DNA of 64,000 bases, taken from a phage. Each line of letters starts with the position of its first letter. Position 1 is the stretch's first letter. The DNA lies in the NCBI GenBank assembly GCA_036436775.1, contig GCA_036436775.1_3676.1. One strand, 5' to 3'. This document shows positions 1-56,131 of this stretch, piece after piece. The notes under the pieces are model-generated. The model ran no database searches. It was not told the DNA's origin and saw nothing but the letters and a program-made list of their open reading frames with translations. The position numbers were made by a program, and so were the translations under genes.

Positions 1-234
1 TATTTTTATACTTTACAATATAATCTTCGTTATCGTTGAATATCCAAAATGGATATTCTGCAAGGGCGGTACTTCCTCTTTCCTTTTTATCCTGGATCTT
101 GTTTACAATTAAAGCCGTAGCAATAGCGCCAATAATAAAACTAGCCCCGCTGATCATGTTACTTTCTCCTTTCATGGTGTTAGTAAATTATCTTTACAGA
201 TGTGGCCCTGCAGCCAGGACCACCGAAAAAATAA

Positions 235-480
235 CTATTTCACAATGCCTACAAAACAGATCCCGCCTTCACCTATATAAGCAATGTCGGTAATTTTATA
301 ATTTGTTAAGATCCGCGTATTCAGCTCGTTAATAAAATCGGTCATCGCGTTGGTGTAGTTGTCTTCCATGTCTAGGGAATAATCCCAGGTGTAAACCTTT
401 TTACGTCCGAAGCCTTTTACCATGATCCGGGCGCTTTTGGTGTTGGTGGGCGCATAGTATTTGGTAATTAGTGCTGCCAT
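235..480 (-). CDS. hypothetical early protein (81 aa)
   Basis: ORF in the co-directional minus-strand early array; GGAGG-type RBS before ATG at 480; promoter-like repeat directly upstream. Confidence 0.5.
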   Translation of the reverse strand: MAALITKYYAPTNTKSARIMVKGFGRKKVYTWDYSLDMEDNYTNAMTDFINELNTRILTNYKITDIAYIGEGGICFVGIVK

Positions 481-518
481 GGTTTTAACTCCTCATTAGT
501 TCAGTGTTAACAGTGTAA

Positions 519-548
519 AGTTTACTTTATTGATGGCCCTGGAGTCAA
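519..548 (-). promoter_or_regulatory. sigma70-like early promoter inside 47 bp repeat copy 1
   Basis: Minus strand reads TTGACT (543-548), 18 nt spacer, TAAACT (519-524); the -35 lies inside palindrome GATGGCC-N10-GGCCATC (532-555). Confidence 0.4.
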
Positions 549-566
549 GGCCATCTAAAAATAAAT

Positions 567-908
567 TTATTCGTTTTCTTCCAGTTCTGAAAGCTCTTCT
601 TTCACTTCCTCAAGCTCTGTCTGCAATTCCTGGTATTCTTCATCGTCCTCAATATCCAGGCTGTCGATGTAGTCGCTAAATCCGCAGCGGTAAGCGATAG
701 GATCTAGCTCCTTGAGGATACGCGACGGAAGAAAAGAAATGTTTCCGATCATAATTTCGCCGTAGATCTCGTCTAACCATTCATCATAGTTTTCGTCGTA
801 CTTGTCCTCGTCGATTTCAAAGTTATCGATCTTATTCTCAAGGTCTGCGATCTGTTTTTTCAGCGCGGCGATCTGCATGGCTTTTTCTGCGGCGGTCATA
901 GTAGTCAT
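567..908 (-). CDS. highly acidic coiled-coil protein (113 aa), candidate DNA-mimic or anti-restriction protein
   Basis: Strong D/E bias (DIEDDEEYQELQTELEEVKEELSELEENE), early location, RBS AAAAGGAGAA. Confidence 0.5.
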   Translation of the reverse strand: MTTMTAAEKAMQIAALKKQIADLENKIDNFEIDEDKYDENYDEWLDEIYGEIMIGNISFLPSRILKELDPIAYRCGFSDYIDSLDIEDDEEYQELQTELEEVKEELSELEENE

Positions 909-958
909 GGTGTTTTCTCCTTTTGTGTGTTCTGGGAAGTTTTCCCGTTGATGTGCTT

Positions 959-986
959 AGTATATCGATCTAAGTTAGCTTGTCAA
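959..986 (-). promoter_or_regulatory. sigma70-like early promoter
   Basis: Minus strand reads TTGACA, 16 nt spacer, TATACT, upstream of the CDS starting at 908. Confidence 0.4.
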
Positions 987-1106
987 TTAAAAATTTAAGA
1001 AAAATTTTGCAAAACTGTTAGCGCTACTCATCAACATTTGCGCCAGGATGTACCCAATGATGCAAACGATGATGGTTACCTTTGTGTGCTGGCGTGTAGT
1101 GCTCAT
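987..1106 (-). CDS. small membrane protein (39 aa), below the ORF-track length cutoff
   Basis: ATG at 1106 preceded by AAAGGAGG; translation MSTTRQHTKVTIIVCIIGYILAQMLMSSANSFAKFFLNF has one hydrophobic helix. Confidence 0.3.
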   Translation of the reverse strand: MSTTRQHTKVTIIVCIIGYILAQMLMSSANSFAKFFLNF

Positions 1107-1138
1107 CTTCAAGCCTCCTTTTTAGCTTAACTGGGATT

Positions 1139-1168
1139 AGTTTACTTTATTGATGGCCCTGGAGTCAA
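1139..1168 (-). promoter_or_regulatory. sigma70-like early promoter inside 47 bp repeat copy 2
   Basis: Same TTGACT-N18-TAAACT architecture as copy 1, embedded in palindrome 1152-1175. Confidence 0.4.
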
Positions 1169-1186
1169 GGCCATCTAAAAATAAAC

Positions 1187-1582
1187 TTAGTAAGTTTTCA
1201 GTACTTTCCCGTCCAGTCTGTCAAGCTGGATCTCGATAGCTGCAGAAAACCTATTATAAACCACATCGCCCATGGAGTCCAGCCAATCTATGACGTTATA
1301 CACCTGCTCTTTGTTCTTGCAAGTCCGGATCCGTTTCATTACGTAAGACGGATCAATATTAGTGCTCTCGTTGTTGTGGTCATGCGCCTGGCCTGCTGCA
1401 TTAGTTATAGATTTTACAACCACCTGAAAGGGCTTTAAGGTGCCTTTTGCGTTCATCTCACGCGCTTTTGCGGCGCGGTTGTTATATGTTACACAACGGC
1501 GGCAAATGTTGACTAAATGCATATCAATAATTTTTTCATCGTTTGCCAGTTCGTTCATGATGCGGCGTACGTTCTTATTCAT
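1187..1582 (-). CDS. hypothetical early protein (131 aa)
   Basis: ORF in early array with RBS; 8 bp-stem hairpin (1602-1620) in its leader. Confidence 0.55.
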   Translation of the reverse strand: MNKNVRRIMNELANDEKIIDMHLVNICRRCVTYNNRAAKAREMNAKGTLKPFQVVVKSITNAAGQAHDHNNESTNIDPSYVMKRIRTCKNKEQVYNVIDWLDSMGDVVYNRFSAAIEIQLDRLDGKVLKTY

Positions 1583-1630
1583 GATCTTTTTCCTTTGTGT
1601 TGGCGGGAAACATTCCCGCCTTTTGTGCCT

Positions 1631-1658
1631 AGTTTACTTTAATTTTGCAGCGTGTCAA
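1631..1658 (-). promoter_or_regulatory. sigma70-like early promoter
   Basis: Minus strand reads TTGACA (1653-1658), 16 nt spacer, TAAACT (1631-1636). Confidence 0.4.
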
Positions 1659-1668
1659 TAATTTTTTT

Positions 1669-2067
1669 TTATTCGTGGGCGCATGTCACAATGTGCTTTT
1701 TATACCCCAGGTGGGCAGCAAGTGCTGACAAAAACTCATCCTCATAGATCCAGCCGTTGGCAGTGATCCCCATAGCATTTAACGCGCTTTCAAGTGCTGC
1801 ATTGGCCTTATCATAACCGTGACCGCTCGCCTTGCCACCAGTATAACCGTACTTGTTGTTCTTGCTGTCGTGCATCCAAAAGACGCAATAATGAGTGTTA
1901 CCGCTGGAGGCGGCATAATACCGGATCTCGGCTACTTCGTGTAAATTATTATCATCGTCTAGGCCAACCAGATTATAAGCCTTGTAGAATCCCCGCTCAC
2001 GGCGGCAGTTCTTAACATCAGAAAAAGAGAAGTCAGCATTATCAAAATTAAAGGTTGTAGTTTTCAT
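1669..2067 (-). CDS. hypothetical early protein (132 aa)
   Basis: ORF with RBS AAGAGGA; no motif recognised. Confidence 0.55.
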   Translation of the reverse strand: MKTTTFNFDNADFSFSDVKNCRRERGFYKAYNLVGLDDDNNLHEVAEIRYYAASSGNTHYCVFWMHDSKNNKYGYTGGKASGHGYDKANAALESALNAMGITANGWIYEDEFLSALAAHLGYKKHIVTCAHE

Positions 2068-2099
2068 GATTTTATCCTCTTAGTGTCTTTTGTGATTTA

Positions 2100-2128
2100 A
2101 GTATATTTTGTGTCAGACTACATGTCAA
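2100..2128 (-). promoter_or_regulatory. sigma70-like early promoter
   Basis: Minus strand reads TTGACA (2123-2128), 17 nt spacer, TATACT (2100-2105). Confidence 0.45.
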
Positions 2129-2131
2129 TAT

Positions 2132-2329
2132 TTATTTTTTATTAAACCAGTGGTTGATCTGACCTTTTGTCAGGGCGCAACGGTTAAGCTGTTGCAGGGT
2201 ATAGCTATGACCGCGACGAAATTTATAAAGGCCTTGCCCGTTGTTGATGGTTACATCCACCAGGCAAACCACTTGATCGGTGACCACCTGGCGAGTGTTG
2301 CGACGTACTTTGATTCCGTATGCGTTCAT
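2132..2329 (-). CDS. hypothetical small protein (65 aa)
   Basis: ORF in early array. Confidence 0.4.
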   Translation of the reverse strand: MNAYGIKVRRNTRQVVTDQVVCLVDVTINNGQGLYKFRRGHSYTLQQLNRCALTKGQINHWFNKK

Positions 2330-2412
2330 GATTTTTTATCCTCTTTACTAGTTAGTGTGGTGTTGTTCACCTTGTAGGATAAGAATAGCAGGACTCCCCC
2401 GGTTGTCAACAA

Positions 2413-2590
2413 TTATTTTAAATTATTTTTATGATAGAATCCACCTGCCGCCGCCCCTACCAGGTTAACCATCATTTTTTCGTACTCTTCTTTATGTTCC
2501 AACGCTCCCGCCATAGCCTTTTCAACCAGGGCGATAGCCTCAGCGTCATTAATAGCTACATTTTCCAGGGGGGATCATATTACCTTTCAT
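2413..2590 (-). pseudogene. candidate small gene interrupted at a C6/G6 homopolymer (frameshift or sequencing indel)
   Basis: ATG at 2590 with RBS AGGAGGT; frame stops after 13 codons, but the +1 frame continues coding-like (LENVAINDAEAIALVEKAMAGALEHKEEYEKMMVNLVGAAAGGFYHKNNLK) from the G6 tract at 2568-2573. Confidence 0.25.
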
Positions 2591-2748
2591 TTTTGTACCT
2601 CCTCTTCAATTGTTACCTATCCTACAGTATAGGCCCACCAGGTTTACAAGCCTTCATTCTCTCCTACCTGGTCAGTTAGGTCCTGCCAGGCTGGCCCACC
2701 AGGTTGCAGCGGTTAGTGCATCAGGTTAGAAAAATTTTTTGAAAAGTG

Positions 2749-2777
2749 TTGACAGCGGCCCCGCCAGGTGGCACAAT
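2749..2777 (+). promoter_or_regulatory. possible plus-strand promoter reading into the noncoding repeat region
   Basis: TTGACA (2749-2754), 17 nt spacer, CACAAT (2772-2777), A/T-rich upstream. Confidence 0.25.
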
Positions 2778-2810
2778 ATACCTATCGAAAGGACGGAAGG
2801 CACCGGTGAC

Positions 2811-3020
2811 GGGGGAGACAACCACCGGGGATGGGCGCTGCATAAAATGAGAACGGTTATCATTATCATTTAAAAGTTTATGCAAAAAATCCTTGCTCTC
2901 TTTGTCCTGTGTGATACTATAATAACAAGCCGGGGCAACAGGGGCCGGGAGACAACCACCGGGCCTGCCCGTTATTCTGCAAACGAGAATGATTATCATT
3001 CAAAATTCTAAATGAGAACT
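2811..3020. repeat. two ~70 bp direct repeats, each carrying a Fur-box-like sequence
   Basis: Units share GAGACAACCACCGGG...GAGAA-G-TTATCATT; GAGAACGGTTATCATTATC (2849-2867) and GAGAATGATTATCATTCAA (2985-3003) match the 19 bp Fur box at 16/19 and 14/19. Confidence 0.4.
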
Positions 3021-3038
3021 CCTCGCATTTAATAAATT

Positions 3039-3056
3039 TAATTAGCATGCTAATTA
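3039..3056. promoter_or_regulatory. 18 bp perfect palindrome, candidate protein-binding site
   Basis: TAATTAGCATGCTAATTA is its own reverse complement; sits in AT-rich noncoding DNA. Confidence 0.3.
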
Positions 3057-3095
3057 CCCTCCGTAACAATTTCCTATAAAACAATACACCATAAA

Positions 3096-3570
3096 ATTTC
3101 CATATAGAAATTTTAAAAATCCATTTCTGAAAACGAAAAATCGATTTCGTCCCAAAAAATTTCAGGCCGAGAGCCGGAACGATTCCCAGAAAATCCGATT
3201 CAGAAAACGAAAAACAGATCGAGTACTGAGAAATTTATCGAGAAAAGTTTTCAGAAAATCAGAGCCCTGAAATGAAAAGTAGATCGAGTACCTGGAAATC
3301 CGCACCGTGACTTCAAGATAGTGGTTAGATTGTTACCATAGAAGGTCAAGGGTAAGTGGAGGAAGTTCTAGTAGAGGGATGTTAGCATGTGCGAGAAATC
3401 TGTAATGGTGGCCTGGAATATGGTGCAAACGATAGGATGGGTGATTCAGCTTGTCGCGCCCACTCTGAAAAAAATCCATTTTAGTTTTCGATCTATTTTC
3501 TGATTTTCTAAGAATTTTAAAATATCTGGCCCGGTGAAATATCAAAAGGAGGAAATCCATTTTAGAAATC
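3096..3570. repeat. AT-rich region of degenerate direct and inverted repeats (iteron-like), candidate origin or regulatory locus
   Basis: AAATCCATTTYWG recurs near 3121, 3469 and 3553; ~55 bp GAAAA-AGATCGAGTAC-GAAAT units near 3180-3290 with inverted relatives near 3480-3530; ORF-track ORFs here look spurious. Confidence 0.35.
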
Positions 3571-41104: not shown

Positions 41105-41152
41105 TGTGTTCTCCAGATAAGAAAACCGCCCCGTCAGGAGCGGTTAGATATA

Positions 41153-42898
41153 TTAACGTTGTGCAATTACTACATCTACGATATCACCAACACCACAATA
41201 CGTTAATTGCAGCAAGGTAACACTGTTAGCCTTGTTGTTAATAACAGGTGTTGCCGACAGGATAGCATACTTATCGTGCAAAGTCACGTTGTGACCTACA
41301 GCATCCTGAATTACATAGATAACCGCAGTAAATGGATAAGGTTTATCTTCCGCTGATGTCCCAGGCCACTGCCCTATTGTAAAATCCCCTTTAGCGTGGA
41401 CAACATACATACTGGCCTGCCCGTTAGGTGTCCATGTCCCACTGGACGCGTCAACCTCCTCTAAATCGAAATCTACCTTCCCTGCGTGGAAAGTAGGGGC
41501 AGTGATGGTTTTACCAGCCTCAATTTCTTGAGAGGTGGTTATCTTACCACTGGAGTTAATACCATTACAGACAAAGTTGACATTAGAGAAGTCTGGCAGC
41601 CATCCGGTCACTGTGCCGGATATTTCAAGATTGTGAAGGTAGGTGGTGCCAGTCCCTGCGGCGTTTAAACTAACATCTCCATTTACCTGCAAGTTTCTGG
41701 TAATGTTGCAGTTTTCAGAGTTTGCAGTTGTTGCAGTTAAAGTGGTGGTGGTCAGCTCAGTAATTGTACCTTTATTGGCTGTAAGCCCTTCTCCTTCAAA
41801 AGTTGCACGCTCATTGACTCTTAAAGTATTCAGAGCTATATTTTGGATAGAGGCTGTACCTCGGATAACTACAGACCCGCCAACCTCCAAATCGCCGTTT
41901 ATCAATGCATCGCCCGTGCTTTCAATATAGCTAGGGTAGATCATGGTGCCATCAACAGAGTAGGTTATCCCTGTAACGGTACCTGTCACCTCAAGGTTCT
42001 TAACCCTGGTGGTCCCATCGACCTGCAATGTCGGTTCGGTTGCTGCCTTCATGGCATTACCACGAATGTACACGTAGTCAAAAAAGTTATTACCCAGACC
42101 ATCAAAATGTACATCGTTATTATTAGCCACTGGTTTCCCAGAAGTTATAGTGTCAGCTATAACCCTGTGGGTGGACACTTCATGAGGTTGCAGCTCTGTA
42201 CTTCTCCAGTCTGCATGCTTAGGATCGCTCCACGCAAAAGTAAGTGTAGAAGTATTTGCCGTGAGGATTAGATTCCTAAAGCGTGCAGTAGAATCTGCCC
42301 CATTAACAGGTCCATGTAAGGTAAGGGTGCCACCAACTATGGTGTTAGCGAGTTCTGTAAGACCTTTCACCACCAAAGATCCTACAGTAACTTTCATCCC
42401 CTCCATGGCTTTAAATATACTATCAACATAGTCAACAACAAACTCTGTGTTTGCTATAGACTCTGACTTATCGTCCATTGGAGGTGTAGGTACTCGCGGG
42501 TCACCTTCGAACCTTGGGCTGTTAAGTTTTGCATAGTATTTTGCCATTACTGCAGAGTCAGTATATAATCTCCAGTTTGGGGATTGTGAAGGATCTGCTG
42601 GCATTCTAACCGGGTTAGATTTTGATGCTGCGGGAGCGTACCACCACTGGGGCCCTGTGTCCCCTTTAAACTCATATAGCTGGTTAAAAACTGTTGTGGA
42701 TGCACCATACGCCCAAGGGATCGGCGGCGTTTTAAAATAAAGGGTGTCAAGCATGGCTTTTCGTACCGTAGGGATGGTGGTCCCATCCTCTACGACAACC
42801 TCATCCACAGCGTTACCGTTGACAATCAGGTGCAAACGTTCAGAATCAACAATTACTTGATCTACCGCCTGCTCAAAGCTTGTCATGTCTTGCGCCAT
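41153..42898 (-). CDS. tail fiber or tailspike-like protein (581 aa)
   Basis: Position within the fiber cluster; T/N/G-rich beta-helix-like composition. Confidence 0.4.
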   Translation of the reverse strand: MAQDMTSFEQAVDQVIVDSERLHLIVNGNAVDEVVVEDGTTIPTVRKAMLDTLYFKTPPIPWAYGASTTVFNQLYEFKGDTGPQWWYAPAASKSNPVRMPADPSQSPNWRLYTDSAVMAKYYAKLNSPRFEGDPRVPTPPMDDKSESIANTEFVVDYVDSIFKAMEGMKVTVGSLVVKGLTELANTIVGGTLTLHGPVNGADSTARFRNLILTANTSTLTFAWSDPKHADWRSTELQPHEVSTHRVIADTITSGKPVANNNDVHFDGLGNNFFDYVYIRGNAMKAATEPTLQVDGTTRVKNLEVTGTVTGITYSVDGTMIYPSYIESTGDALINGDLEVGGSVVIRGTASIQNIALNTLRVNERATFEGEGLTANKGTITELTTTTLTATTANSENCNITRNLQVNGDVSLNAAGTGTTYLHNLEISGTVTGWLPDFSNVNFVCNGINSSGKITTSQEIEAGKTITAPTFHAGKVDFDLEEVDASSGTWTPNGQASMYVVHAKGDFTIGQWPGTSAEDKPYPFTAVIYVIQDAVGHNVTLHDKYAILSATPVINNKANSVTLLQLTYCGVGDIVDVVIAQR

Positions 42899-42907
42899 GA
42901 TCTCTCC

Positions 42908-43174
42908 TTAAGCTTTTTGCTCTTCGTTTTTAACGTGGTCAGGGTGCTGGCAACCCCACCGGAGCGAGATGAATTTGCTAATAAGCTGGGGGCAAGCTAC
43001 CGAAGGCGCATATATCCACGCATACCATTCAGGAAGCGTATCATTATACCCCATATGAATAAACACCCCAGTCATCACCGCCATACCTATGTTTGACCAT
43101 AGCTTAGATTGGGACACTTTCGTAGGGTCATCAGATGCCGCAACCAGTCCCCATAAAAACTGAGTTAGTTTCAT
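42908..43174 (-). CDS. small membrane protein (88 aa) within the fiber cluster
   Basis: Hydrophobic segment LWSNIGMAVMTGVFIHMGY. Confidence 0.4.
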   Translation of the reverse strand: MKLTQFLWGLVAASDDPTKVSQSKLWSNIGMAVMTGVFIHMGYNDTLPEWYAWIYAPSVACPQLISKFISLRWGCQHPDHVKNEEQKA

Positions 43175-43185
43175 TTACCCTCTTT

Positions 43186-44232
43186 TTAAGCATAAGATAT
43201 AGTGATCCATTGACCATTTACAAGTTTTTGGATAGCACCTGTCCAGTAATCACCTTGATAAGGGTGTTTATAAGCGTAGTTACCCGAGCACATCACATGT
43301 CCAGGGTAGACTCTTGACTCTCTGTAGGTGGTTTTGAAACGGTTTGCTATCCTCACATCATCAACCCCTCTGCTGGGCATAGGGATAGTAAGGTTACCAC
43401 TACCGTCTGCGCTGTTACCATTTACCCTGCGGACCACGTTTCTTCCACCAACTGTTGCATATTGGCCCCTGACGGTTTCATCGTTACAATCAACTCTTCC
43501 ACCTATTTGAGCGCTTCCACAGGATTGTTGTCCATTAACAGTGGCTCTTGGTATCGTAGCTGCATTGGCATTTGCAGAGGAACTTTTTGCGTCGTTGCAT
43601 TCAAGATTTCCTTGGATAGCCAGTCTTGCACGGTTGGCAGTTATAGCATTGAGCTTCATAGCTGAAAACACAGGCTGCCCACCAGAAGGTTGAAATCTCC
43701 AACGGAAACCGTCTATTTGGTGAGAGGGATCATCAAGGTCTGTGCCGTCAGCACCACCGATGTTGTCCATAATCCAGAAATCCATCATCGTCTTGTCTGA
43801 AGTTATGGTAGTGTATATCGCCGCATTGTCTGTTGACGCGGATGCAAACTCGATTCTTTGAAGACCTAAAGTTTGAGTCTGGATCATTGTGTCTCCAGCC
43901 TTGTCAACATAAAGGTCATCCATTTCTTCAGGCGAGTATACATTGAGAACTTGACGTGCAGCAGCTTTGTCTGGAACGTCTGCCAGATTATTAGTGACCC
44001 TTAAGAATCTATTATCCCATCCTGGGACAACATCTTCTGTTAAATGCTTTAACCACGCAGAAAGCATGTGAAGTTCAAAGTTAACAACTTCACATGCCAC
44101 TCTTTGTGTCATATCCCAACCTTTCAGTCTCTCTTCTTTTTTTGGTTGGGACTTATTCAATTCTCCCGTATTTTCAAGCACAACATCCTGATTGGCCCAA
44201 ATATCAAGAGGGATAACTGGTTTAGTCATCAC
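43186..44232 (-). CDS. tail fiber / receptor-binding protein, paralog 2 (348 aa)
   Basis: Shares N-terminus (P(L/I)(E/D)IWA...D.VL.NT), GDTM, FRWRFQP, NAITANRA and C-terminus QKLVNGQWIT(I/V)(S/N)YA with 45244-46284. Confidence 0.55.
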   Translation of the reverse strand: MMTKPVIPLDIWANQDVVLENTGELNKSQPKKEERLKGWDMTQRVACEVVNFELHMLSAWLKHLTEDVVPGWDNRFLRVTNNLADVPDKAAARQVLNVYSPEEMDDLYVDKAGDTMIQTQTLGLQRIEFASASTDNAAIYTTITSDKTMMDFWIMDNIGGADGTDLDDPSHQIDGFRWRFQPSGGQPVFSAMKLNAITANRARLAIQGNLECNDAKSSSANANAATIPRATVNGQQSCGSAQIGGRVDCNDETVRGQYATVGGRNVVRRVNGNSADGSGNLTIPMPSRGVDDVRIANRFKTTYRESRVYPGHVMCSGNYAYKHPYQGDYWTGAIQKLVNGQWITISYA

Positions 44233-44318
44233 GTTCTCCTGAGAAAATTCCTTAGGACTATTTTAACACTTTAGTGAACAAAATGCAAGAACGGAGTCCT
44301 TTCCGTCCTGACCTTTGT

Positions 44319-44633
44319 TTACCTTTTACTATGCTCTACAAGCATGTGCAAAATCTTTTGTACATCAGCTCTGATGCCGGAGACATCTGTCCTAACATCC
44401 TGCTTAAGGTCGTTAATATCGGCCTCTAGCTTGCTTAACCGGGTCTCGATAATAGAATCAAGTTTATCTTTTGTAACCATACTGTTTTTCACTAAGATGA
44501 GGTCTTTCTCCAGTTCATCCAACCTCTTGGAAATGCCTTTCCATTTGGTGTGCCACTGGTTGAAAGCCCATACACAGATCGGGACAACGGTACCCATGCA
44601 GATACCGTACAATGCCGCCAAATCCAACTCCAC
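44319..44633 (-). CDS. membrane-anchored coiled-coil protein (104 aa)
   Basis: N-terminal TM LAALYGICMGTVVPICVWAF followed by heptad-like coiled coil; function open (i-spanin-like architecture or fiber-associated). Confidence 0.4.
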   Translation of the reverse strand: MELDLAALYGICMGTVVPICVWAFNQWHTKWKGISKRLDELEKDLILVKNSMVTKDKLDSIIETRLSKLEADINDLKQDVRTDVSGIRADVQKILHMLVEHSKR

Positions 44634-44644
44634 AACACCTCCTC

Positions 44645-45229
44645 TTAGAGGGTAGGTCGCTCCGGGAAGAAAATGTCAGGGGCTTTAGATGTATCTATTT
44701 CAAGAAGTTTTACCCTGTACATTTTCAAATCTCTGATGTTACGTTTCTGGTCATCAGTAAGATCATATTCAAGGTCAATCATGTCTTGATAGGCACCAAT
44801 TCTAGCAGTAGCCCAAGCAAGTTCTGTCTCTATGACACCCTCTGCCTGTTGAACAAAGAATTCATTGTCTGTGACAAATTCATCACCAACTAAACGCAAA
44901 GCGTCGTGGTGAAGCATAATGTTTTCTGGTACCTCTTCTTTTTTGGCGATAACCACACGAAGACCTGGAGCAGGCCATAGGGCATCAGGTTCTTCTGTAG
45001 ATGTCTTAAGAATTCCCTTCTCGTCAACAAGTAGGAAGATACAACCCGGATTTTCTTGTCGTAATGTTCGTGACTGCACATACCAATCGCCATCATCATT
45101 ACGTAAAAAATACCCAGTGTATGCGGTGTAATCCTCAACCTCTTGAGGGGTCAGCTCCTTGGTTCCCTTGTTAGGGTGGTATTCGCCAGATCCCGGTTGG
45201 TAAAGTTTAAACTCTTGAAGTATTTTCAT
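44645..45229 (-). CDS. putative tail fiber assembly chaperone (194 aa)
   Basis: Immediately downstream of a fiber gene, size typical of tail fiber assembly proteins; motif-level support weak. Confidence 0.35.
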   Translation of the reverse strand: MKILQEFKLYQPGSGEYHPNKGTKELTPQEVEDYTAYTGYFLRNDDGDWYVQSRTLRQENPGCIFLLVDEKGILKTSTEEPDALWPAPGLRVVIAKKEEVPENIMLHHDALRLVGDEFVTDNEFFVQQAEGVIETELAWATARIGAYQDMIDLEYDLTDDQKRNIRDLKMYRVKLLEIDTSKAPDIFFPERPTL

Positions 45230-45243
45230 GCTAGTCCTCCGAT

Positions 45244-46284
45244 CTATGCATAATTAACAGTGATCCATTGACCATTTACAAGTTTTTGTAAAGGTCCTGC
45301 CCAGTAGGTTGAACCACGCATCTCTTTTTTGTCACCGAAATGCCAGCCTGTGACAACGTAGCCGTTGCGAATTGGAGATTCAGAAACGCCGTCAACAAGT
45401 CTTGCACCGATTCTGATGTCTTGCACACCTGTCTGCGGGATAGTGATTGTTACATCACCGTTACCGTTAGCCGTCACCCCATTCACAGAGCGCACCACAT
45501 TTCTGTTACCGACAACACAGTGCTGGCTTCTTACAACCATGCTGTCACAACTTGCACCACCATTAACATATACTGACCCAGCCGTCAACTGACTAGCCAC
45601 ATTACAGTTGGTGAATGTTGCTGTATTGCTGATAGTAAGGTTATTGCACCTCATGTTATCGACAACTTCAACATTGCCTACCACTTTCAACAGCGCACGG
45701 TTAGCCGTGATCGCGTTAAGGTACATCAAAGTGAACTCTGGATTAATATCCGGCTGAGTTGGCTGGAATCTCCAACGGAACGCATCTACTGTAGATGTAC
45801 CACCATCATCAAACGACCCGGTATTATCACTTAACCCAAAGTCGAGAGTTGTCTTATCTGGGCCAATAGTTGTCTCTATCCAAGCCTTATCTGTCTCGGC
45901 AGCTTTAAAGTTGATACGTTGCAAACCCAGTGGGCCTGTCATTGTATCACCTGTAACTTTTACATATCTGGCGTCTGCCTCTTCCTTAGTAATAATCCCA
46001 AGGTTTCTACGGGCAACAGGAATGTTCAAAAGATCACTCAAGTTATTATCGCGTACCAGATAACGGCCTTCTTGAGCGGGGATCTGCTCATCAGCAATAT
46101 ATTTTGCCCAAGTTCCGAGCATATTGAAAATATAGTTAAGTTCTTCACATGAGGGCTTTTGACCAAGATCCCAACCTTTTCTCCACAAATCATCAATCGG
46201 GCGTAGCCTGTTCTGTCTGTGGGTGTTAGGCAGAACCTGATCCTCCTCTGCCCAAATCTCTAATGGAAAACTAGGTTTTGACAT
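45244..46284 (-). CDS. tail fiber / receptor-binding protein, paralog 1 (346 aa)
   Basis: Paralog of 43186-44232 (GDTMTGPLGLQR, DAFRWRFQP, LQKLVNGQWITVNYA). Confidence 0.55.
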   Translation of the reverse strand: MSKPSFPLEIWAEEDQVLPNTHRQNRLRPIDDLWRKGWDLGQKPSCEELNYIFNMLGTWAKYIADEQIPAQEGRYLVRDNNLSDLLNIPVARRNLGIITKEEADARYVKVTGDTMTGPLGLQRINFKAAETDKAWIETTIGPDKTTLDFGLSDNTGSFDDGGTSTVDAFRWRFQPTQPDINPEFTLMYLNAITANRALLKVVGNVEVVDNMRCNNLTISNTATFTNCNVASQLTAGSVYVNGGASCDSMVVRSQHCVVGNRNVVRSVNGVTANGNGDVTITIPQTGVQDIRIGARLVDGVSESPIRNGYVVTGWHFGDKKEMRGSTYWAGPLQKLVNGQWITVNYA

Positions 46285-46296
46285 TTTATCTCCTGA

Positions 46297-48369
46297 TTAT
46301 GAGAAGTCTGGTGGTGTAATATCTTCACTGTAGCCTTTAATGGCAACTTGTCCCATATGAAGCACGGTAGAATCTCTAGCGGTAACAGTGATGCTGTCAG
46401 ACATTACTTGCGGGTATGCCCACACATACTGTTTTACCTCAGGGTATCTATACTCTATAGTTGCCATGTTTCCGCAAATACATCTCCATAAAAATTCTTG
46501 GTAATTCCTAGTTGGGTCGTATCCATATACCGGAGCAAGCTCTTTACTAGGAACGAACCCTGCAAGGTATTGTATTTCAGACGGTTGCCAACCTAACTTA
46601 ACGATAGGTATGTTTACAGACTCTTTTGCCTTTTCAATACCTCCCTGCATCACCCAATCGTAGCACTCAGTGCAGAAGAAATCAAGAGCGCCTGCTTCTT
46701 TTTTATATTGGTCAGCAAGGTTAAGCTTTTGCGTAAGCTCGGTTTCCATAATGGTTGGGAAAAACAGCAGAGCTGTCATCTGAGCTGATGCAGCGTGTGC
46801 CTTTATTGCCTTTGAAATAGCCGCAATACGAGCGCCAAGCTTACCACGACAAAATGCTACATACTTGTCGTAAACACCTCCAGTTTTAGGATCGTCAATA
46901 GTCCCAATATCTAAGGCATACTCGCCTGTCTCATCATAAAACGCCTGTTTTGTAGGGTAATCATAAATACAAGGTCTACGAGTATCGGTATTGTACCACC
47001 ACCACGGTTCACCAACCTGCATAATCACTGGCAGGTTGTTTCTCATAGCGACTGATGCAAAATTCTTAAATACTGCAGTAAGGAAATTCATACCCTCTTC
47101 AATGGTTGGAGACAGGAGGTAGCTACAAGGTGTATATCCTGTTTTAGCGTAGTTATCATTCCAGTCTCTTTGGGTCCATTCCAACGGGCAGGCATCGCTG
47201 TAAAGCTCAAAACTTACAGACTGCATAACGTCGAAGTTATGTCGTTTGGCATTGTACATAAAATCATCATGCCATTTATAAGCTGCAGCGTTTAGCGCTC
47301 CTGTTCTGTTTATAGACCATTGGGTTCCTGACCATGTGTAGTCATAATAATGACTCATACCAACATAATGGTTTATGGTTCCGGTATAGCCCAGACGCTT
47401 GATATTGTTCAACACCCTTAAAGGAGATACGTTCCACATATCGTCATATGCGGTGCAGATCCCAACGTCGTGCTCTTTAACCTGAATATTGTTAAGTTGC
47501 ATCATTTTCCAGCCCGTGTCTGGCTGAAGCAGATCTAGGCGCAACTCACACTCTACATTTTCCGTTCTCGGGTCTGTGCTATTACTTACCCAGTCTTTAG
47601 GCATGAGCGGTATTAAAATTCTTCTCACCTGTCGAGGATCAACACCCATCATGTTGTTGTTCTGATCCATCCCGACGCAGTCCTCGAAATCAATATGAAT
47701 CTCTGCAACATTCTTATCCTCTGAGATGCTGACAGCATATTGAGCTAAAGGAACATAGATGATTGTACCATCAACAAGGTCTACAGTCATAATCATCTTT
47801 TCAGGAGTGGAGAAGTTGCTGGCATTGGTTATTGACATTCTGAACCAAAGCTTGGTGTTTCTCATCTCATAGTGATCATCAAACCCAATACCGAAATGGT
47901 CATACTTGTCAACTGTTTCCCAAATGCACCCAGCCATACCTCCATATGTTCTTGACACTAAACGGTTAATACAACAGTTGTCATCTGCAACAATACAGGT
48001 ACTTTCAGTCTGCTGAGTGGTTGTAACCCAATATCTTGGGTGAAACATTCTCTCCTCGACAGTATCCCAAGATATTCTGTCAAGATTCTCATCTGAAACT
48101 ATTGTACATTTCGCCCTTTGTGTCCCAATCATCACCCCTTGAGATTTTGATGAAAACTCCATAAAGAAGCTTCTTGGTAACCTGTTGGGTAATTTGTCAA
48201 CAATTTCCACTGGGATTTCAATACTGGTTGCCCCAACTGGGATAGTTATATCGCCCTCAACATGATCATAATCCCTACCAGGAACGGCAGTATCCTGAAC
48301 TGTGCGGTAATGAAACCGTGCAGCCATTGTAGAGTAATCACGGTAAGGTTTAAAAACAGCTGTTGCCAT
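46297..48369 (-). CDS. tail or baseplate structural protein (690 aa)
   Basis: Position in tail module, coupled to neighbours. Confidence 0.4.
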   Translation of the reverse strand: MATAVFKPYRDYSTMAARFHYRTVQDTAVPGRDYDHVEGDITIPVGATSIEIPVEIVDKLPNRLPRSFFMEFSSKSQGVMIGTQRAKCTIVSDENLDRISWDTVEERMFHPRYWVTTTQQTESTCIVADDNCCINRLVSRTYGGMAGCIWETVDKYDHFGIGFDDHYEMRNTKLWFRMSITNASNFSTPEKMIMTVDLVDGTIIYVPLAQYAVSISEDKNVAEIHIDFEDCVGMDQNNNMMGVDPRQVRRILIPLMPKDWVSNSTDPRTENVECELRLDLLQPDTGWKMMQLNNIQVKEHDVGICTAYDDMWNVSPLRVLNNIKRLGYTGTINHYVGMSHYYDYTWSGTQWSINRTGALNAAAYKWHDDFMYNAKRHNFDVMQSVSFELYSDACPLEWTQRDWNDNYAKTGYTPCSYLLSPTIEEGMNFLTAVFKNFASVAMRNNLPVIMQVGEPWWWYNTDTRRPCIYDYPTKQAFYDETGEYALDIGTIDDPKTGGVYDKYVAFCRGKLGARIAAISKAIKAHAASAQMTALLFFPTIMETELTQKLNLADQYKKEAGALDFFCTECYDWVMQGGIEKAKESVNIPIVKLGWQPSEIQYLAGFVPSKELAPVYGYDPTRNYQEFLWRCICGNMATIEYRYPEVKQYVWAYPQVMSDSITVTARDSTVLHMGQVAIKGYSEDITPPDFS

Positions 48370-49055
48370 TAACCCTCCTGTCTAGTTGCGTTTACTGTAA
48401 TACTTTCACAATAAATGGTTGTGGTGTCCCAATCAGGTCTTACGTCAGGAACATACAGCAAAGTAGCCAGCCCACCAACTCCGAATTGGTTTTCTTCCCA
48501 CACTGATCCGAAGCCAAGAGCTGTAGAGTCACCTTCAAAACCAAAAGCTTGCCCTTGCGATTCTGTAAGACGCAAATGACAAGGCAGTGGTAGCATGTCT
48601 AAGATCTGATCAATAGACTGCAATATGTCAAAGCAAGTTTTTCTAATATTTATGTCAAACCTGAAGTTGTCTCCTTTCCACGTATCGAAATTGTTTCTTC
48701 CGAACAATTGTCGCAAGGTGGAGATGACATCTTCGCGAGTCCCGCCCCTTGATGCTGCGGCCTGCTGAATAATTAGTGTGGCACGAAAATCAGCATCTGA
48801 AAGTCCATTCCTAAGAATACCGAGTTGATTACCAACTTCGTCAAGGTATCTTCCGCTGGCATTATTAAGCAATCTTCCTTCAGCCAAACCTACCAGCATC
48901 TTATCAACATCCTCCAACCTTTTAAGGTACACGGTTAAGAATGTGACTAAATTAACCTTCTCAGCCAGAAAATCTCCAGGCAGGTAGTCAAGACCTCCCT
49001 GAACAAAATCTGGCAGAGTGTGGATGTGGTTAACATCCGACTTAATCTCTGCCAT
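48369..49055 (-). CDS. tail or baseplate protein (228 aa)
   Basis: Position; coupled start and stop. Confidence 0.4.
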   Translation of the reverse strand: MAEIKSDVNHIHTLPDFVQGGLDYLPGDFLAEKVNLVTFLTVYLKRLEDVDKMLVGLAEGRLLNNASGRYLDEVGNQLGILRNGLSDADFRATLIIQQAAASRGGTREDVISTLRQLFGRNNFDTWKGDNFRFDINIRKTCFDILQSIDQILDMLPLPCHLRLTESQGQAFGFEGDSTALGFGSVWEENQFGVGGLATLLYVPDVRPDWDTTTIYCESITVNATRQEG

Positions 49056-49066
49056 ATCTCGCCGCC

Positions 49067-50557
49067 TTAAATAGTTTGTTGGAAAGTTATATTACTTTCA
49101 TCGAGGTCAAACACCTCGGTCATGTTTGCAACAATATCGTTTGCAGTGTAAGCTTCATCAGAAGCCCCCACAGGTTTAACTTGAATTACCAGTCTATTAA
49201 ATCTACCTATCGACACAGCAGCAGATGCAGCACCAACCAATTGGATATTGTACAACGTATCTGCAACATCCAGTCCGTTAACAACCTGCAAAAGAGCCTC
49301 TACAATGGCATCTTTTTCGGTTGTGGAAAGCGCAGCACCTGAGTAGGTAATTCTTACATCCAGGCGGTAGGTATTTGCCTTGGAATAATAAATTCTTTCA
49401 GTTTGACCGTCAGATGTAGTTACATCGTAGAAAATATTACCATAAGTTCTGTTCGTACAGGCTATAGTTTGGTAAAGTGCTTGGCAAATGTCCTCCGTTG
49501 CACCACCAAACACAACCACTTGGAACTTGTAAGGAGGTATACCTTTAGCATCAGTTTTATCGGTGTTGTTGGAGAACACTCTCACTTTCTCAACACCTTT
49601 CACCTCGCTTACCGCGCTAAGGATTGCAGGACGGGTAGCCTTCGATGTTAACTGTTTAGTGCTGGAAGCTCTTAAGCGATACTCGGAATCTTTCTCAACA
49701 TCCCTGCCCTCGTTGAATCTTTCGCGGTTGGTAAGCTTGATAAATCCACTGGGAGTAGGTGACATTGTTGTCACGGTTTCTGCCTCTCTTGACAGCTCGC
49801 CAGCCTCGTTAGCGATAACATCCAGGGTGATGGTTCTTTCCCCTACAATCGGGGATACTCTGAAATCTACCCTACTATTAAGTCCAACTTGATCAAGATT
49901 CGAATTGTACCCTATCCACAACGTTCCTGTCAACATATCGATCTGAATCAAATCGTCGTTCAACAGGGTTGTATTATCGACAATGAATTGCTTAATCTCT
50001 CCGTAAAAGCTTGGCAGATCAGAAGAGTCCAGAGCCTTATCTGTTAAAACCAAACTTTTTGTTTTGATACTTCCATCTGTCTGGTTGGTAATTTGAAAGT
50101 TGTATTTACCAATCCTTAGGTCTGGAGCATTTATTCTGTGGGCAATAAGATTCCCTGCCACTTGCACATCATTGCTAAGAACAAAGTTGCCACTATCCAG
50201 CGTATAAGTTTTGGAATCATAAATCATATTGTACGGCACAGTTGTGTTGATCGTCAACTGGCAGGTACCTGATGATTTAGAACGGCCTCTTCGGTAAATA
50301 CCTTGTCTTCCAAGAAGTTCGTCCAGGTAAATACCTTCTGCCCCATACAGCGTCTGTGATGCGTATACAGATGCTGCCATAAGAATAAGTTGATACTCTC
50401 GCTCGTTGAAGATAGTGGTCAGCTTATCTGCAACGGAGTTACTCTGTACGTTGAAGTTTTCGCCAAAAGCACGGATCAGGCTTTGCTTAGTTTCAACGAT
50501 TAGGTCATTTAGGGTTGGTATAACGAAACCAGCCTCTGTCAATCCATACTTAGCCAC
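49067..50557 (-). CDS. tail or baseplate protein (496 aa), possibly baseplate-J-like
   Basis: Position just downstream of the J-like gene; weak resemblance to baseplate J N-termini. Confidence 0.35.
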   Translation of the reverse strand: MAKYGLTEAGFVIPTLNDLIVETKQSLIRAFGENFNVQSNSVADKLTTIFNEREYQLILMAASVYASQTLYGAEGIYLDELLGRQGIYRRGRSKSSGTCQLTINTTVPYNMIYDSKTYTLDSGNFVLSNDVQVAGNLIAHRINAPDLRIGKYNFQITNQTDGSIKTKSLVLTDKALDSSDLPSFYGEIKQFIVDNTTLLNDDLIQIDMLTGTLWIGYNSNLDQVGLNSRVDFRVSPIVGERTITLDVIANEAGELSREAETVTTMSPTPSGFIKLTNRERFNEGRDVEKDSEYRLRASSTKQLTSKATRPAILSAVSEVKGVEKVRVFSNNTDKTDAKGIPPYKFQVVVFGGATEDICQALYQTIACTNRTYGNIFYDVTTSDGQTERIYYSKANTYRLDVRITYSGAALSTTEKDAIVEALLQVVNGLDVADTLYNIQLVGAASAAVSIGRFNRLVIQVKPVGASDEAYTANDIVANMTEVFDLDESNITFQQTI

Positions 50558-50626
50558 GTCACTCCTCCGGTATGAAAATCTCTACAAGGTATTTTACCAA
50601 ATTTTGTAACAATAGTCAATCTGAGC

Positions 50627-56070: not shown

Positions 56071-56131
56071 TGTGCCTCCAGGTTAAACAATCATGATAGT
56101 TATTTTACCAGATTTTAAGTTAATACGCAAT

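Follow-up and report, generated by a model that had tools for sequence, protein, structure and literature searches.

Gene content of the locus

The locus examined here, positions 43186–46284 of a 64,000-nucleotide (nt) stretch of phage DNA (contig GCA_036436775.1_3676.1 of GenBank assembly GCA_036436775.1; "the window" refers to this whole stretch), encodes two related short tail fibre proteins, a tail fibre assembly chaperone and a small membrane-anchored protein. Four adjacent minus-strand open reading frames (ORFs) fill the interval; a first-pass annotation, made from the sequence alone, had described them, and they are present in the ORF listing. In the order of transcription, they correspond to short tail fibre 1 (45244..46284, 346 amino acids (aa), rV5 gp33), a chaperone of the Mu GpU/lambda Tfa type (44645..45229, 194 aa, rV5 gp32), a coiled-coil protein annotated as a membrane protein (44319..44633, 104 aa, rV5 gp31) and short tail fibre 2 (43186..44229, rV5 gp30), the last preceded by a spacer (44233..44318). 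The start of gp30 is most likely the ATG at 44229, giving 347 aa, and not the GTG at 44232, giving 348 aa, because the ATG lies 6 nt after an AGGAG ribosome-binding site and the same start is annotated in rV5. Of the two fibre lengths proposed at first, 346 aa stands and 348 aa should most likely be replaced by 347 aa.

The window derives from an rV5-like Escherichia coli phage of the genus Vequintavirus. In a nucleotide comparison of region 42900–46300, the best 30 of the rV5-like records are 97.7–99.5% identical, and 117 phage records in all, nearly all labelled Escherichia, match at 90% identity or more. Identity over these 3.4 kb amounts to 99.5% with Escherichia phage MiataMamis and 97.9% with rV5, and the genes of the region match those of the annotated records of rV5 and JohannBauhin (BASEL Bas53; bas53_0034-0037) one by one and in the same order. 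The rV5 gene names are used throughout.

The two fibre proteins

The proposed paralogy of the two fibres is borne out by BLASTP, which aligns them over their full length (346 versus 348 aa) with 43% identity and an E value of 4e-95, and by a profile search in which both match phrog_4465 ("tail fiber protein") over positions 1–342 of 342, with E values of 1.8e-171 for gp33 and 1.7e-164 for gp30. These full-length matches place both proteins in the Vequintavirus short tail fibre family (PHROG 4465), and their position agrees with this assignment, as they lie in the late tail operon, past the baseplate genes, in a module that contains a Tfa chaperone. Searches of Pfam and NCBIfam with both fibres returned no family, just a sub-threshold match to bPH_11. 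Motifs at the N-terminus, in the centre and at the C-terminus had been described as common to the two proteins, which otherwise differ, and the segment identities agree: in gp33 numbering, they amount to 40% (residues 1–70), 44% (71–125), 55% (126–200), 29% (201–260), 57% (261–290), 26% (291–325) and 71% (326–346), the least similar segments being in the shaft (201–260) and in a subdomain of the tip (291–325).

The architecture of gp33 comprises an N-terminal anchor (approximately residues 1–108), a middle shaft and a tip of approximately 60 residues resembling that of Mu GpS; gp30 is a derived paralog with an altered anchor and tip. In phmmer searches of the PDB, gp33 residues 1–108 match the short tail fibre of phage phiTE (9cuy_c, E 1.4e-19), as does the N-terminus of gp30 (E 1.9e-8), while gp33 residues 286–343 match residues 440–501 of Mu S (5yvq_A, E 1.7e-6). 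The same search with gp30 alone did not return Mu S. A six-sequence family profile recovered both structures, 9cuy_c at positions 1–133 (E 1.5e-28) and 5yvq_A at positions 276–340 (E 7.3e-11). Structural models of the monomers were generated using AlphaFold2 (AF2) and were used solely for a Foldseek comparison, not for reading surfaces or tips. They are weak, with predicted local distance difference test (pLDDT) scores of 64.1 for gp33 and 62.4 for gp30 and predicted template modelling (pTM) scores of 0.34 and 0.30, which is expected because such fibres are interdigitated trimers. Against the PDB, their sole significant Foldseek match is the Mu fibre–chaperone complex 5yvq_A (E 3e-7 for gp33, 6.3e-6 for gp30). 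The first-pass annotation had named baseplate wedges as the proteins these genes might turn out to encode; the sequence, profile and fold searches show that both are fibres and not wedges.

The tail fibre assembly chaperone

The gene between the two copies that had been read as a putative assembly chaperone can be assigned with a known family. Residues 122–192 of gp32 align with positions 61–130 of the 131-position profile of Caudo_TAP, the family of lambda gpK and Tfa (PF02413; E 1.3e-11), and the score of this C-terminal region, 45.2 bits, exceeds the gathering score of 22.1, which makes gp32 a member of the family. The protein also matches phrog_136 ("tail fiber assembly protein", E 3.6e-36), is 34–47% identical overall to Tfa orthologs, and is labelled "tail fiber chaperone" or "assembly protein" in the records of JohannBauhin and rV5. 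A sequence search of the PDB with gp32 returned only spurious matches; the conserved C-terminal part of TfaMu is absent from 5YVQ (PMC9608196). The gene starts 14 nt past gp33 and is the sole chaperone gene of the module; gp30 has no chaperone gene of its own and is followed by gp29.

Small proteins of the module

The protein gp31, described at first as a transmembrane (TM)/coiled-coil protein, does have this composition: it contains one hydrophobic segment (residues 5–23, Kyte–Doolittle 1.91) followed by a heptad register over residues 29–104, in which 73% of the a/d positions are hydrophobic. It matches phrog_5345, a family of unknown function, with an E value of 8e-49. By tblastn, gp31 was found in 224 phage records, comprising rV5-like phages and sister genera, and it holds the same position after the chaperone in Av-05, GAP31 and KPP-1. 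In the phi92-like phage PaulScherrer, the chaperone is followed by an analogous protein of 113 aa with a weak match to phrog_5345 (E 0.0018). The gp31 family is confined to Vequintavirinae and always follows the chaperone; it is an old, conserved companion of the fibre–chaperone pair, present also in the single-copy genera, and not a product of the duplication.

In all five gp31-family sequences compared (including those at L003:6638-6952 and L005:6555-6896), the residues before the TM segment are acidic and those after it are rich in lysine and arginine. Under the positive-inside rule, these flanking charges place the coiled coil in the cytoplasm, so that the protein is predicted to be tethered to the membrane inside the cell, a predicted topology unlike that of an i-spanin or an antiholin. 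Pfam matches of gp31 are sub-threshold only (e.g., XhlA, E 0.025), and the phi92-like analogue touches the Rz-like family phrog_739 (E 5e-4).

Immediately downstream of gp30 lies gp29 (42908..43174, minus strand, 88 aa), which is annotated as a "membrane protein" and matches phrog_1322 (E 2.7e-32). It is weakly hydrophobic, no 19-residue window reaching a Kyte–Doolittle value of 1.2, and it is more widespread than gp31, with 369 phage records, phi92-like and Phapecoctavirus phages among them; some ESCO phages carry it under the annotation "structural protein". A third small protein, of 157 aa, is found in sister genera; it corresponds to phrog_7451, is polytopic with four to five TM segments, and was detected by tblastn in 107 phage records, none of them an rV5-like Vequintavirus. 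Its gene sits at L003:6949-7422, L004:6961-7434 and L006:6847-7320, and is also present in phiTE. Pfam, NCBIfam and PHROGs give no function for gp31, gp29 or the 157-aa protein, and the phage-record annotations of gp31 and gp29 are uninformative. A holin or spanin role was considered for all three, and nothing supports it; the spanins of phage LL12 are annotated elsewhere, and the LL12 announcement identifies no holin (PMC6658697).

Origin of the second fibre gene

The first-pass annotation had described a duplicated cassette. This part of its reading does not hold, since the fibre gene alone is doubled, and the chaperone and the TM/coiled-coil protein are single-copy genes that are old neighbours of the fibre in sister genera. 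A tblastn search of 50,697 phage records with gp33 found 545 places in 428 records; the 117 extra places match a second copy in each of approximately 116 rV5-like records. Among the matches listed, all rV5-like records have at least two places and all records of other genera have one, so that the comparison of copy number with related phages, which had been proposed as a check, separates the genus from its relatives. A single record among the matches listed, MN850642.1 (Escherichia phage navn), has three places for the gp33 query; one of them lies at the very start of the record and may be an artefact of assembly or of a terminal repeat instead of a further copy.

Gene order indicates where the new copy was inserted. 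In Av-05, GAP31 and KPP-1, the order is fibre, Tfa, 104-aa TM/coiled-coil protein, 157-aa membrane protein, ~88-aa protein and ~585-aa fibre. The rV5-like order is identical, except that the second fibre gene occupies the exact slot of the 157-aa gene. The order in the single-copy genera implies that the chaperone and the TM/coiled-coil protein were the ancestral downstream neighbours of a single fibre gene and that the new copy was placed after them; the slot comparison implies that the gain of the second fibre coincides with the loss of the 157-aa membrane protein. A neighbour-joining tree (computed without bootstrap) groups the gp33 clade with the gp30 clade as its sister, away from all single-copy lineages, which dates the duplication to the Vequintavirus stem. 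The duplication is therefore genus-specific and involves the fibre gene only.

Unequal divergence of the two copies

The two copies have not diverged to the same extent. With 51.5% identity to the single-copy ortholog of Av-05, gp33 is closer to that protein than to its own paralog (44.6%), and gp30 is more distant than gp33 from every homolog compared. To quantify the difference, we took 27 homologs that belong to neither the gp30 nor the gp33 clade, in which 71 positions reach a conservation of 90% or more: gp33-type sequences deviate at five of these positions, in each case conservatively, and gp30-type sequences at 11, six of which fall in anchor residues 1–70. Several of the gp30 changes are drastic (P19E, I30K/E, W34R). 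By these sequence measures, gp33 is the conservative copy and gp30 the derived one, evolving faster in the anchor and the tip. Within the genus, change is mainly synonymous in both copies: in comparison with rV5 and JohannBauhin, gp33 has 15–16 synonymous codon differences and one non-synonymous, and gp30 has 25 synonymous and 6–10 non-synonymous.

The tips follow the same pattern. The gp33 tip keeps the motif TGW.FG.KKE.RG, as do those of Av-05 and PaulScherrer, and 52-kb Rosemountvirus phages have fibres that match the gp33 tip region at 58.6% identity. In 116 Vequintavirus records, conservation of the genus-specific gp30 tip is 95% or higher, the next best match being 45%, and the tip persists in an allele of gp30 whose overall identity is just 79%. 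An outside donor of this tip was not found, there being no match between 95% (its own genus) and 45%.

A divergent metagenomic relative with the same two-copy layout (ENA ERZ15185469 NODE_327, 116-3254, here L007), whose gp33 ortholog is 73–74% identical, provides a second pair of paralogs. The shaft segment 201–260 contains spaced cysteines (at approximately residues 205–260), four in gp33 and three in gp30, with none in Av-05 and GAP31 and two in the second short tail fibre of L007; disulfides or metal sites in the trimer are a possible role for these residues.

Similarity of the C-termini within a genome

At their extreme C-termini, the two fibres depart from the general divergence. In the window, the last 21 residues are 71% identical between gp33 and gp30, versus 26% immediately upstream, and the 3'-terminal 62 nt of both genes (counted with the stop codon) show 84% identity and contain a long uninterrupted match. 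In L007, the paralogs are 83% identical to each other over residues 291–325 and 100% over residues 326–346, with 32–53% in the anchors and shafts, and the 3'-terminal 178 nt are 75% identical at the DNA level. The L007 tips are 51–76% and 24–57% identical to their orthologs in the window, that is, less alike than the L007 tips are to each other. Both paralogs of the window end in YA, and both of L007 end in QTL. As judged from these alignments, the C-termini evolve in concert within a genome, and the likeness of the L007 tips suggests that the receptor-binding tip has undergone gene conversion or concerted evolution. Co-variation of the C-termini within a genome fits one shared chaperone, and the simplest reading would be that the single gp32 must fit both fibres.

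A late promoter-like element upstream of gp30

From gp36 to gp28, the gene junctions measure 9–14 nt or overlap by 1 nt (gp35/gp34), and the sole long one is the spacer between gp31 and gp30, which extends for 86 nt if gp30 starts at the GTG (44232) or 89 nt if it starts at the preferred ATG (44229). The spacer contains a terminator-like hairpin (44309–44288, minus strand) and, approximately 30 nt upstream of the ATG, the sequence TGTTAAAATA (44268–44259), which resembles the rV5 late promoter motif, followed by the ribosome-binding site mentioned above. A scan with this motif gave 17 matches in the window versus 5.9 expected, and exact copies lie approximately 30 nt upstream of gp36 (50590–50599) and gp40 (56101–56110). 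These sites correspond to the promoters P030, P036 and P040 predicted by Kropinski et al., the late promoter P030 being already present in their Table S4C (PMC3606486). The element is conserved in rV5, JohannBauhin and L007. Its own hairpin and late-promoter-like element suggest that gp30 heads a separate late transcription unit with gp29 and gp28.

Flanking genes and related records

Downstream of gp29, and beginning 9 nt past it, lies gp28 (41153..42898, minus strand), which encodes a lateral tail fibre of 581 aa, so annotated in JohannBauhin and matching phrog_4549 (E 6e-251); a terminator-like hairpin follows at 41145–41124. Correspondence with the annotated records identifies the 1878-aa protein of the window as the lateral fibre gp27. 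Upstream of the fibres, a gene for a J-like baseplate wedge (49067–50557) and a gene for a baseplate protein (48369–49055) are separate genes. Between these and gp33 lies the 690-aa gene corresponding to rV5 gp34 (46297–48369), whose product contains a Calx-beta domain together with the N-terminal and TIM-barrel domains of an N4-type non-contractile tail sheath (PF23844, PF23845, E 5e-80). It has been proposed in the literature that the rV5 gp34-type fibre binds the N4 glycan receptor (NGR), previously read as enterobacterial common antigen (ECA).

The records matching region 42900–46300 include 16–21 entries labelled "Campylobacter phage" (GenBank MG0656xx, host Campylobacter jejuni), which are approximately 98% identical to it. 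This host label looks doubtful, or the stocks may have been contaminated.

Published knowledge of the locus

The locus has been described in the literature of 2013, 2021 and 2025, and the finding is therefore already known. Kropinski et al. (2013) described gp30 and gp33 as paralogs with 42.3% identity, and reported HHpred matches to 1PDI with probabilities of 98.4% for gp30 and 97.7% for gp33 (PMC3606486). Maffei et al. (2021) recognized the proteins as short tail fibres with a fibre–chaperone pair like Mu GpS/GpU, noted hardly any allelic variation in the paralogs, in contrast to the variable host-range fibres, and recorded one copy in phi92-like and Phapecoctavirus relatives (PMC8594841). 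In the same work, all Vequintavirinae of the BASEL collection failed to infect waaC and waaG mutants, i.e., they need the lipopolysaccharide (LPS) core, and a terminal LPS-core receptor was proposed for the short tail fibres by analogy with Mu GpS and T4 gp12 (PMC8594841). Phage LL12 requires waaC, waaF and waaG, and genetic mapping identified the first outer-core glucose as the critical residue (PMC7229145). Modelling with RBPseg in 2025 covered this fibre class, TC1, and noted its Mu-like C-terminus, implying a need for Tfa; density for the short-fibre class is present in 7–9.5 Å cryo-electron microscopy maps of Bas49 and Bas54 virions, in which the paralog is not resolved, and the fibres of Vequintavirus form an interconnected network at the baseplate (PMC12143355). 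The first-pass annotation suggested a multi-receptor adsorption apparatus, and an apparatus with several fibres is likewise known for this phage family (PMC8594841, PMC7229145).

Our analysis confirms that the observation is real and was correctly read in outline, and that it concerns an ordinary, well-known locus of the rV5 type. Since its publication dates from 2013, flagging the duplication again adds nothing new. In the papers on the locus, we have not seen it stated that the duplication involves the fibre gene only, that the second copy occupies the slot of the 157-aa gene, that gp30 evolves faster, or that the C-termini co-vary. The slot replacement, the asymmetry of anchor and tip and the C-terminal co-variation sharpen the question of function and leave the overall picture unchanged.

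Proposed function of the module and of its second fibre

The best explanation, taken as a whole, which we hold with good confidence, is that the locus is the short tail fibre module of an rV5-like Vequintavirus, orthologous to rV5 gp33-gp32-gp31-gp30. By analogy with Mu, T4, phiTE and LL12, each fibre protein would form a homotrimeric short fibre on a baseplate wedge; in phiTE, the short tail fibre is attached to wedge protein 1 by a joint comprising residues 3–92 (PMC11972413). The chaperone gp32 would nucleate trimer formation at the C-terminal tip, in the way that Tfa of Mu attaches distally to its fibre and drives assembly of the trimer; TfaMu stays on the fibre tip (PMC9608196), and gp32 may likewise remain bound. 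During adsorption, the lateral fibres would engage a primary glycan receptor first and the short fibres would then bind the LPS core, probably around the first outer-core glucose that LL12 requires, committing the baseplate to sheath contraction. With respect to its history, the fibre gene would have been duplicated in the ancestor of Vequintavirus, gp33 keeping the ancestral anchor and tip and gp30 replacing the 157-aa membrane-protein gene and diverging in the anchor and in tip subdomain 291–325, while the last ~20 residues of gp30 stayed matched to gp33, which would fit service by one chaperone. That these products are not fibres at all but, for example, baseplate wedges has a negligible probability: the sequence, profile and fold searches match fibre proteins only, and the J-like wedge and the baseplate protein have their own genes upstream.

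Several points weigh against parts of this explanation. The receptor role of both paralogs is drawn from analogy with Mu, T4, phiTE and LL12, and the link to T4 gp12 was absent in phmmer and hmmsearch searches of the PDB (E up to 1) and in Foldseek. That gp32 acts on gp30 is inferred solely from the likeness of the two fibres at their C-termini, and the low-confidence monomer models are uninformative on the binding surface of the tips. The presence of both copies in virions is not firmly documented. It goes back to one sentence in the main text of Kropinski et al., according to which gp30, gp32 and gp33 were detected in virions by mass spectrometry (MS); the MS list in Table S5 of the same paper contains 19 proteins (including loci 27, 34, 37 and 41), none of which is 346, 347 or 194 aa long, peptides of gp30, gp32 and gp33 and their locus lengths were looked for in that table (Additional file 5) and are not present, and Table S3 flags gp34 with "MS evidence" and carries no such flag for gp30, gp32 and gp33 (PMC3606486). 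Finally, the L007 tips, at 83–100% identity, rule out two receptor specificities as the general reason for keeping the duplicate.

Why two copies are kept, whether for two LPS-core specificities or for two baseplate positions, is the question of interest. Our preferred reading, offered as a possibility and tentatively, is that gp30 has become neofunctionalised: its remodelled N-terminal anchor would attach to another, or a modified, site on the baseplate and its genus-specific tip would bind another epitope of the LPS core, while the protein would still depend on gp32, giving two kinds of short fibre and two terminal-receptor specificities per virion. Reliance on gp32 would account for the co-evolution of the two extreme C-termini in each genome. 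The same duplication could also serve geometry, both fibres binding one receptor and gp30 occupying a second set of baseplate positions, with more avidity or an altered order of deployment and no added specificity. The near-identical tips of the L007 paralogs on dissimilar anchors and shafts favour such a role, as do the clustering of non-conservative gp30 changes in the N-terminal anchor and the common LPS-core dependence of all BASEL Vequintavirinae, single-copy relatives included (PMC8594841). The lineage of the window speaks otherwise, as tip segment 291–325 is the most diverged there and was then held nearly constant across the 116 genomes and in the divergent allele, so that the derived gp30 tip looks like a distinct, selected binding surface. 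We regard a purely geometric role as rather unlikely, while giving it sizeable weight because L007 indicates that differing tips are not universal.

The organisation of the downstream genes raises another option, in which gp30 would not bind a receptor but act as an adaptor, a stalk by which the lateral fibres encoded downstream might be attached. The gene opens the unit gp30-gp29-gp28, which has its own hairpin and late-promoter-like element and continues through junctions of 9–11 nt, and the Vequintavirus fibres are interconnected at the baseplate (PMC12143355). However, gp30 keeps a Mu-like tip and a chaperone-matched C-terminus, and sister genera carry the gp28 ortholog without gp30, which shows that gp28 does not need it; an adaptor role is accordingly improbable. 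Less probable still, and by a wide distance from anything we would favour, is co-assembly of the paralogs as heterotrimers into one mixed fibre type. The extreme C-termini, where chaperone-nucleated trimerisation would be expected, are common to both proteins, but an overall identity of 43%, indels in the shaft and differing, independently evolving anchors speak against mixed trimers, and a separate promoter suggests independent dosage. To our knowledge, there is no precedent for heterotrimers among fibres of the Mu or P2 type.

By the same analogies, the short tail fibres would decide whether rV5-like phages commit to injection, once the lateral fibres have found a cell. Such phages are often isolated and are candidates for use in therapy and biocontrol. 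The reason for retaining two copies is of modest interest for host-range engineering.

Comparison with known systems

The closest systems are rV5 and all other Vequintavirus phages, which carry the same genes in the same order; rV5 and JohannBauhin differ from the window by only one residue in gp33 and by 6–10 residues in gp30. The single-copy modules of Avunavirus Av-05, Seunavirus GAP31/PVP-SE1, Mydovirus KPP-1 and the phi92-like Justusliebigvirus are built alike, with a fibre 30–51% identical to gp33 followed by Tfa and then by the TM/coiled-coil protein. They differ in having one fibre gene, and the three Vequintavirinae genera among them carry the 157-aa phrog_7451 gene at the slot of gp30.

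The short tail fibre of phiTE (9CUY/9MJN), a Pectobacterium phage of the genus Certrevirus (Vequintavirinae), is homologous over its N-terminal ~100 residues, and the downstream genes for small membrane proteins are conserved. It differs in being a single 554-aa copy with a coiled-coil shaft and immunoglobulin-like distal domains in a flagellotropic phage, and its C-terminus has just the short extreme motif QK.VNG.W.T in common with that of gp33. With T4 gp12, the likeness is one of function, that of a short baseplate fibre binding the LPS core for irreversible adsorption; T4 has a single short tail fibre gene and uses the chaperone gp57A, not Tfa. Assignment of the two fibres to the gp12 family was dropped, and gp12 is treated as a functional analogue.

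The nearest relative of the distal part is Mu GpS/GpU (TfaMu; PDB 5YVQ), which shares a homologous C-terminal tip and, directly downstream of gp33, a Caudo_TAP chaperone; the receptor of Mu GpS is a glucose of the LPS core (PMC8594841). The N-terminal anchors of gp33 and gp30 are unrelated to that of Mu. An invertible tip segment of the Mu G or P1 C type was rejected for the present locus, as no inverted repeats of at least 16 nt occur in 42800–46400 and the paralogs lie on the same strand; the module also has no invertase gene. Mu alternates two tips by inversion of its G segment, one at a time, whereas the present phage carries two tandem paralogs, both in the late orientation, with one chaperone. 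If the preferred reading of gp30 is true, tandem duplication achieves here what Mu achieves by G-segment inversion.

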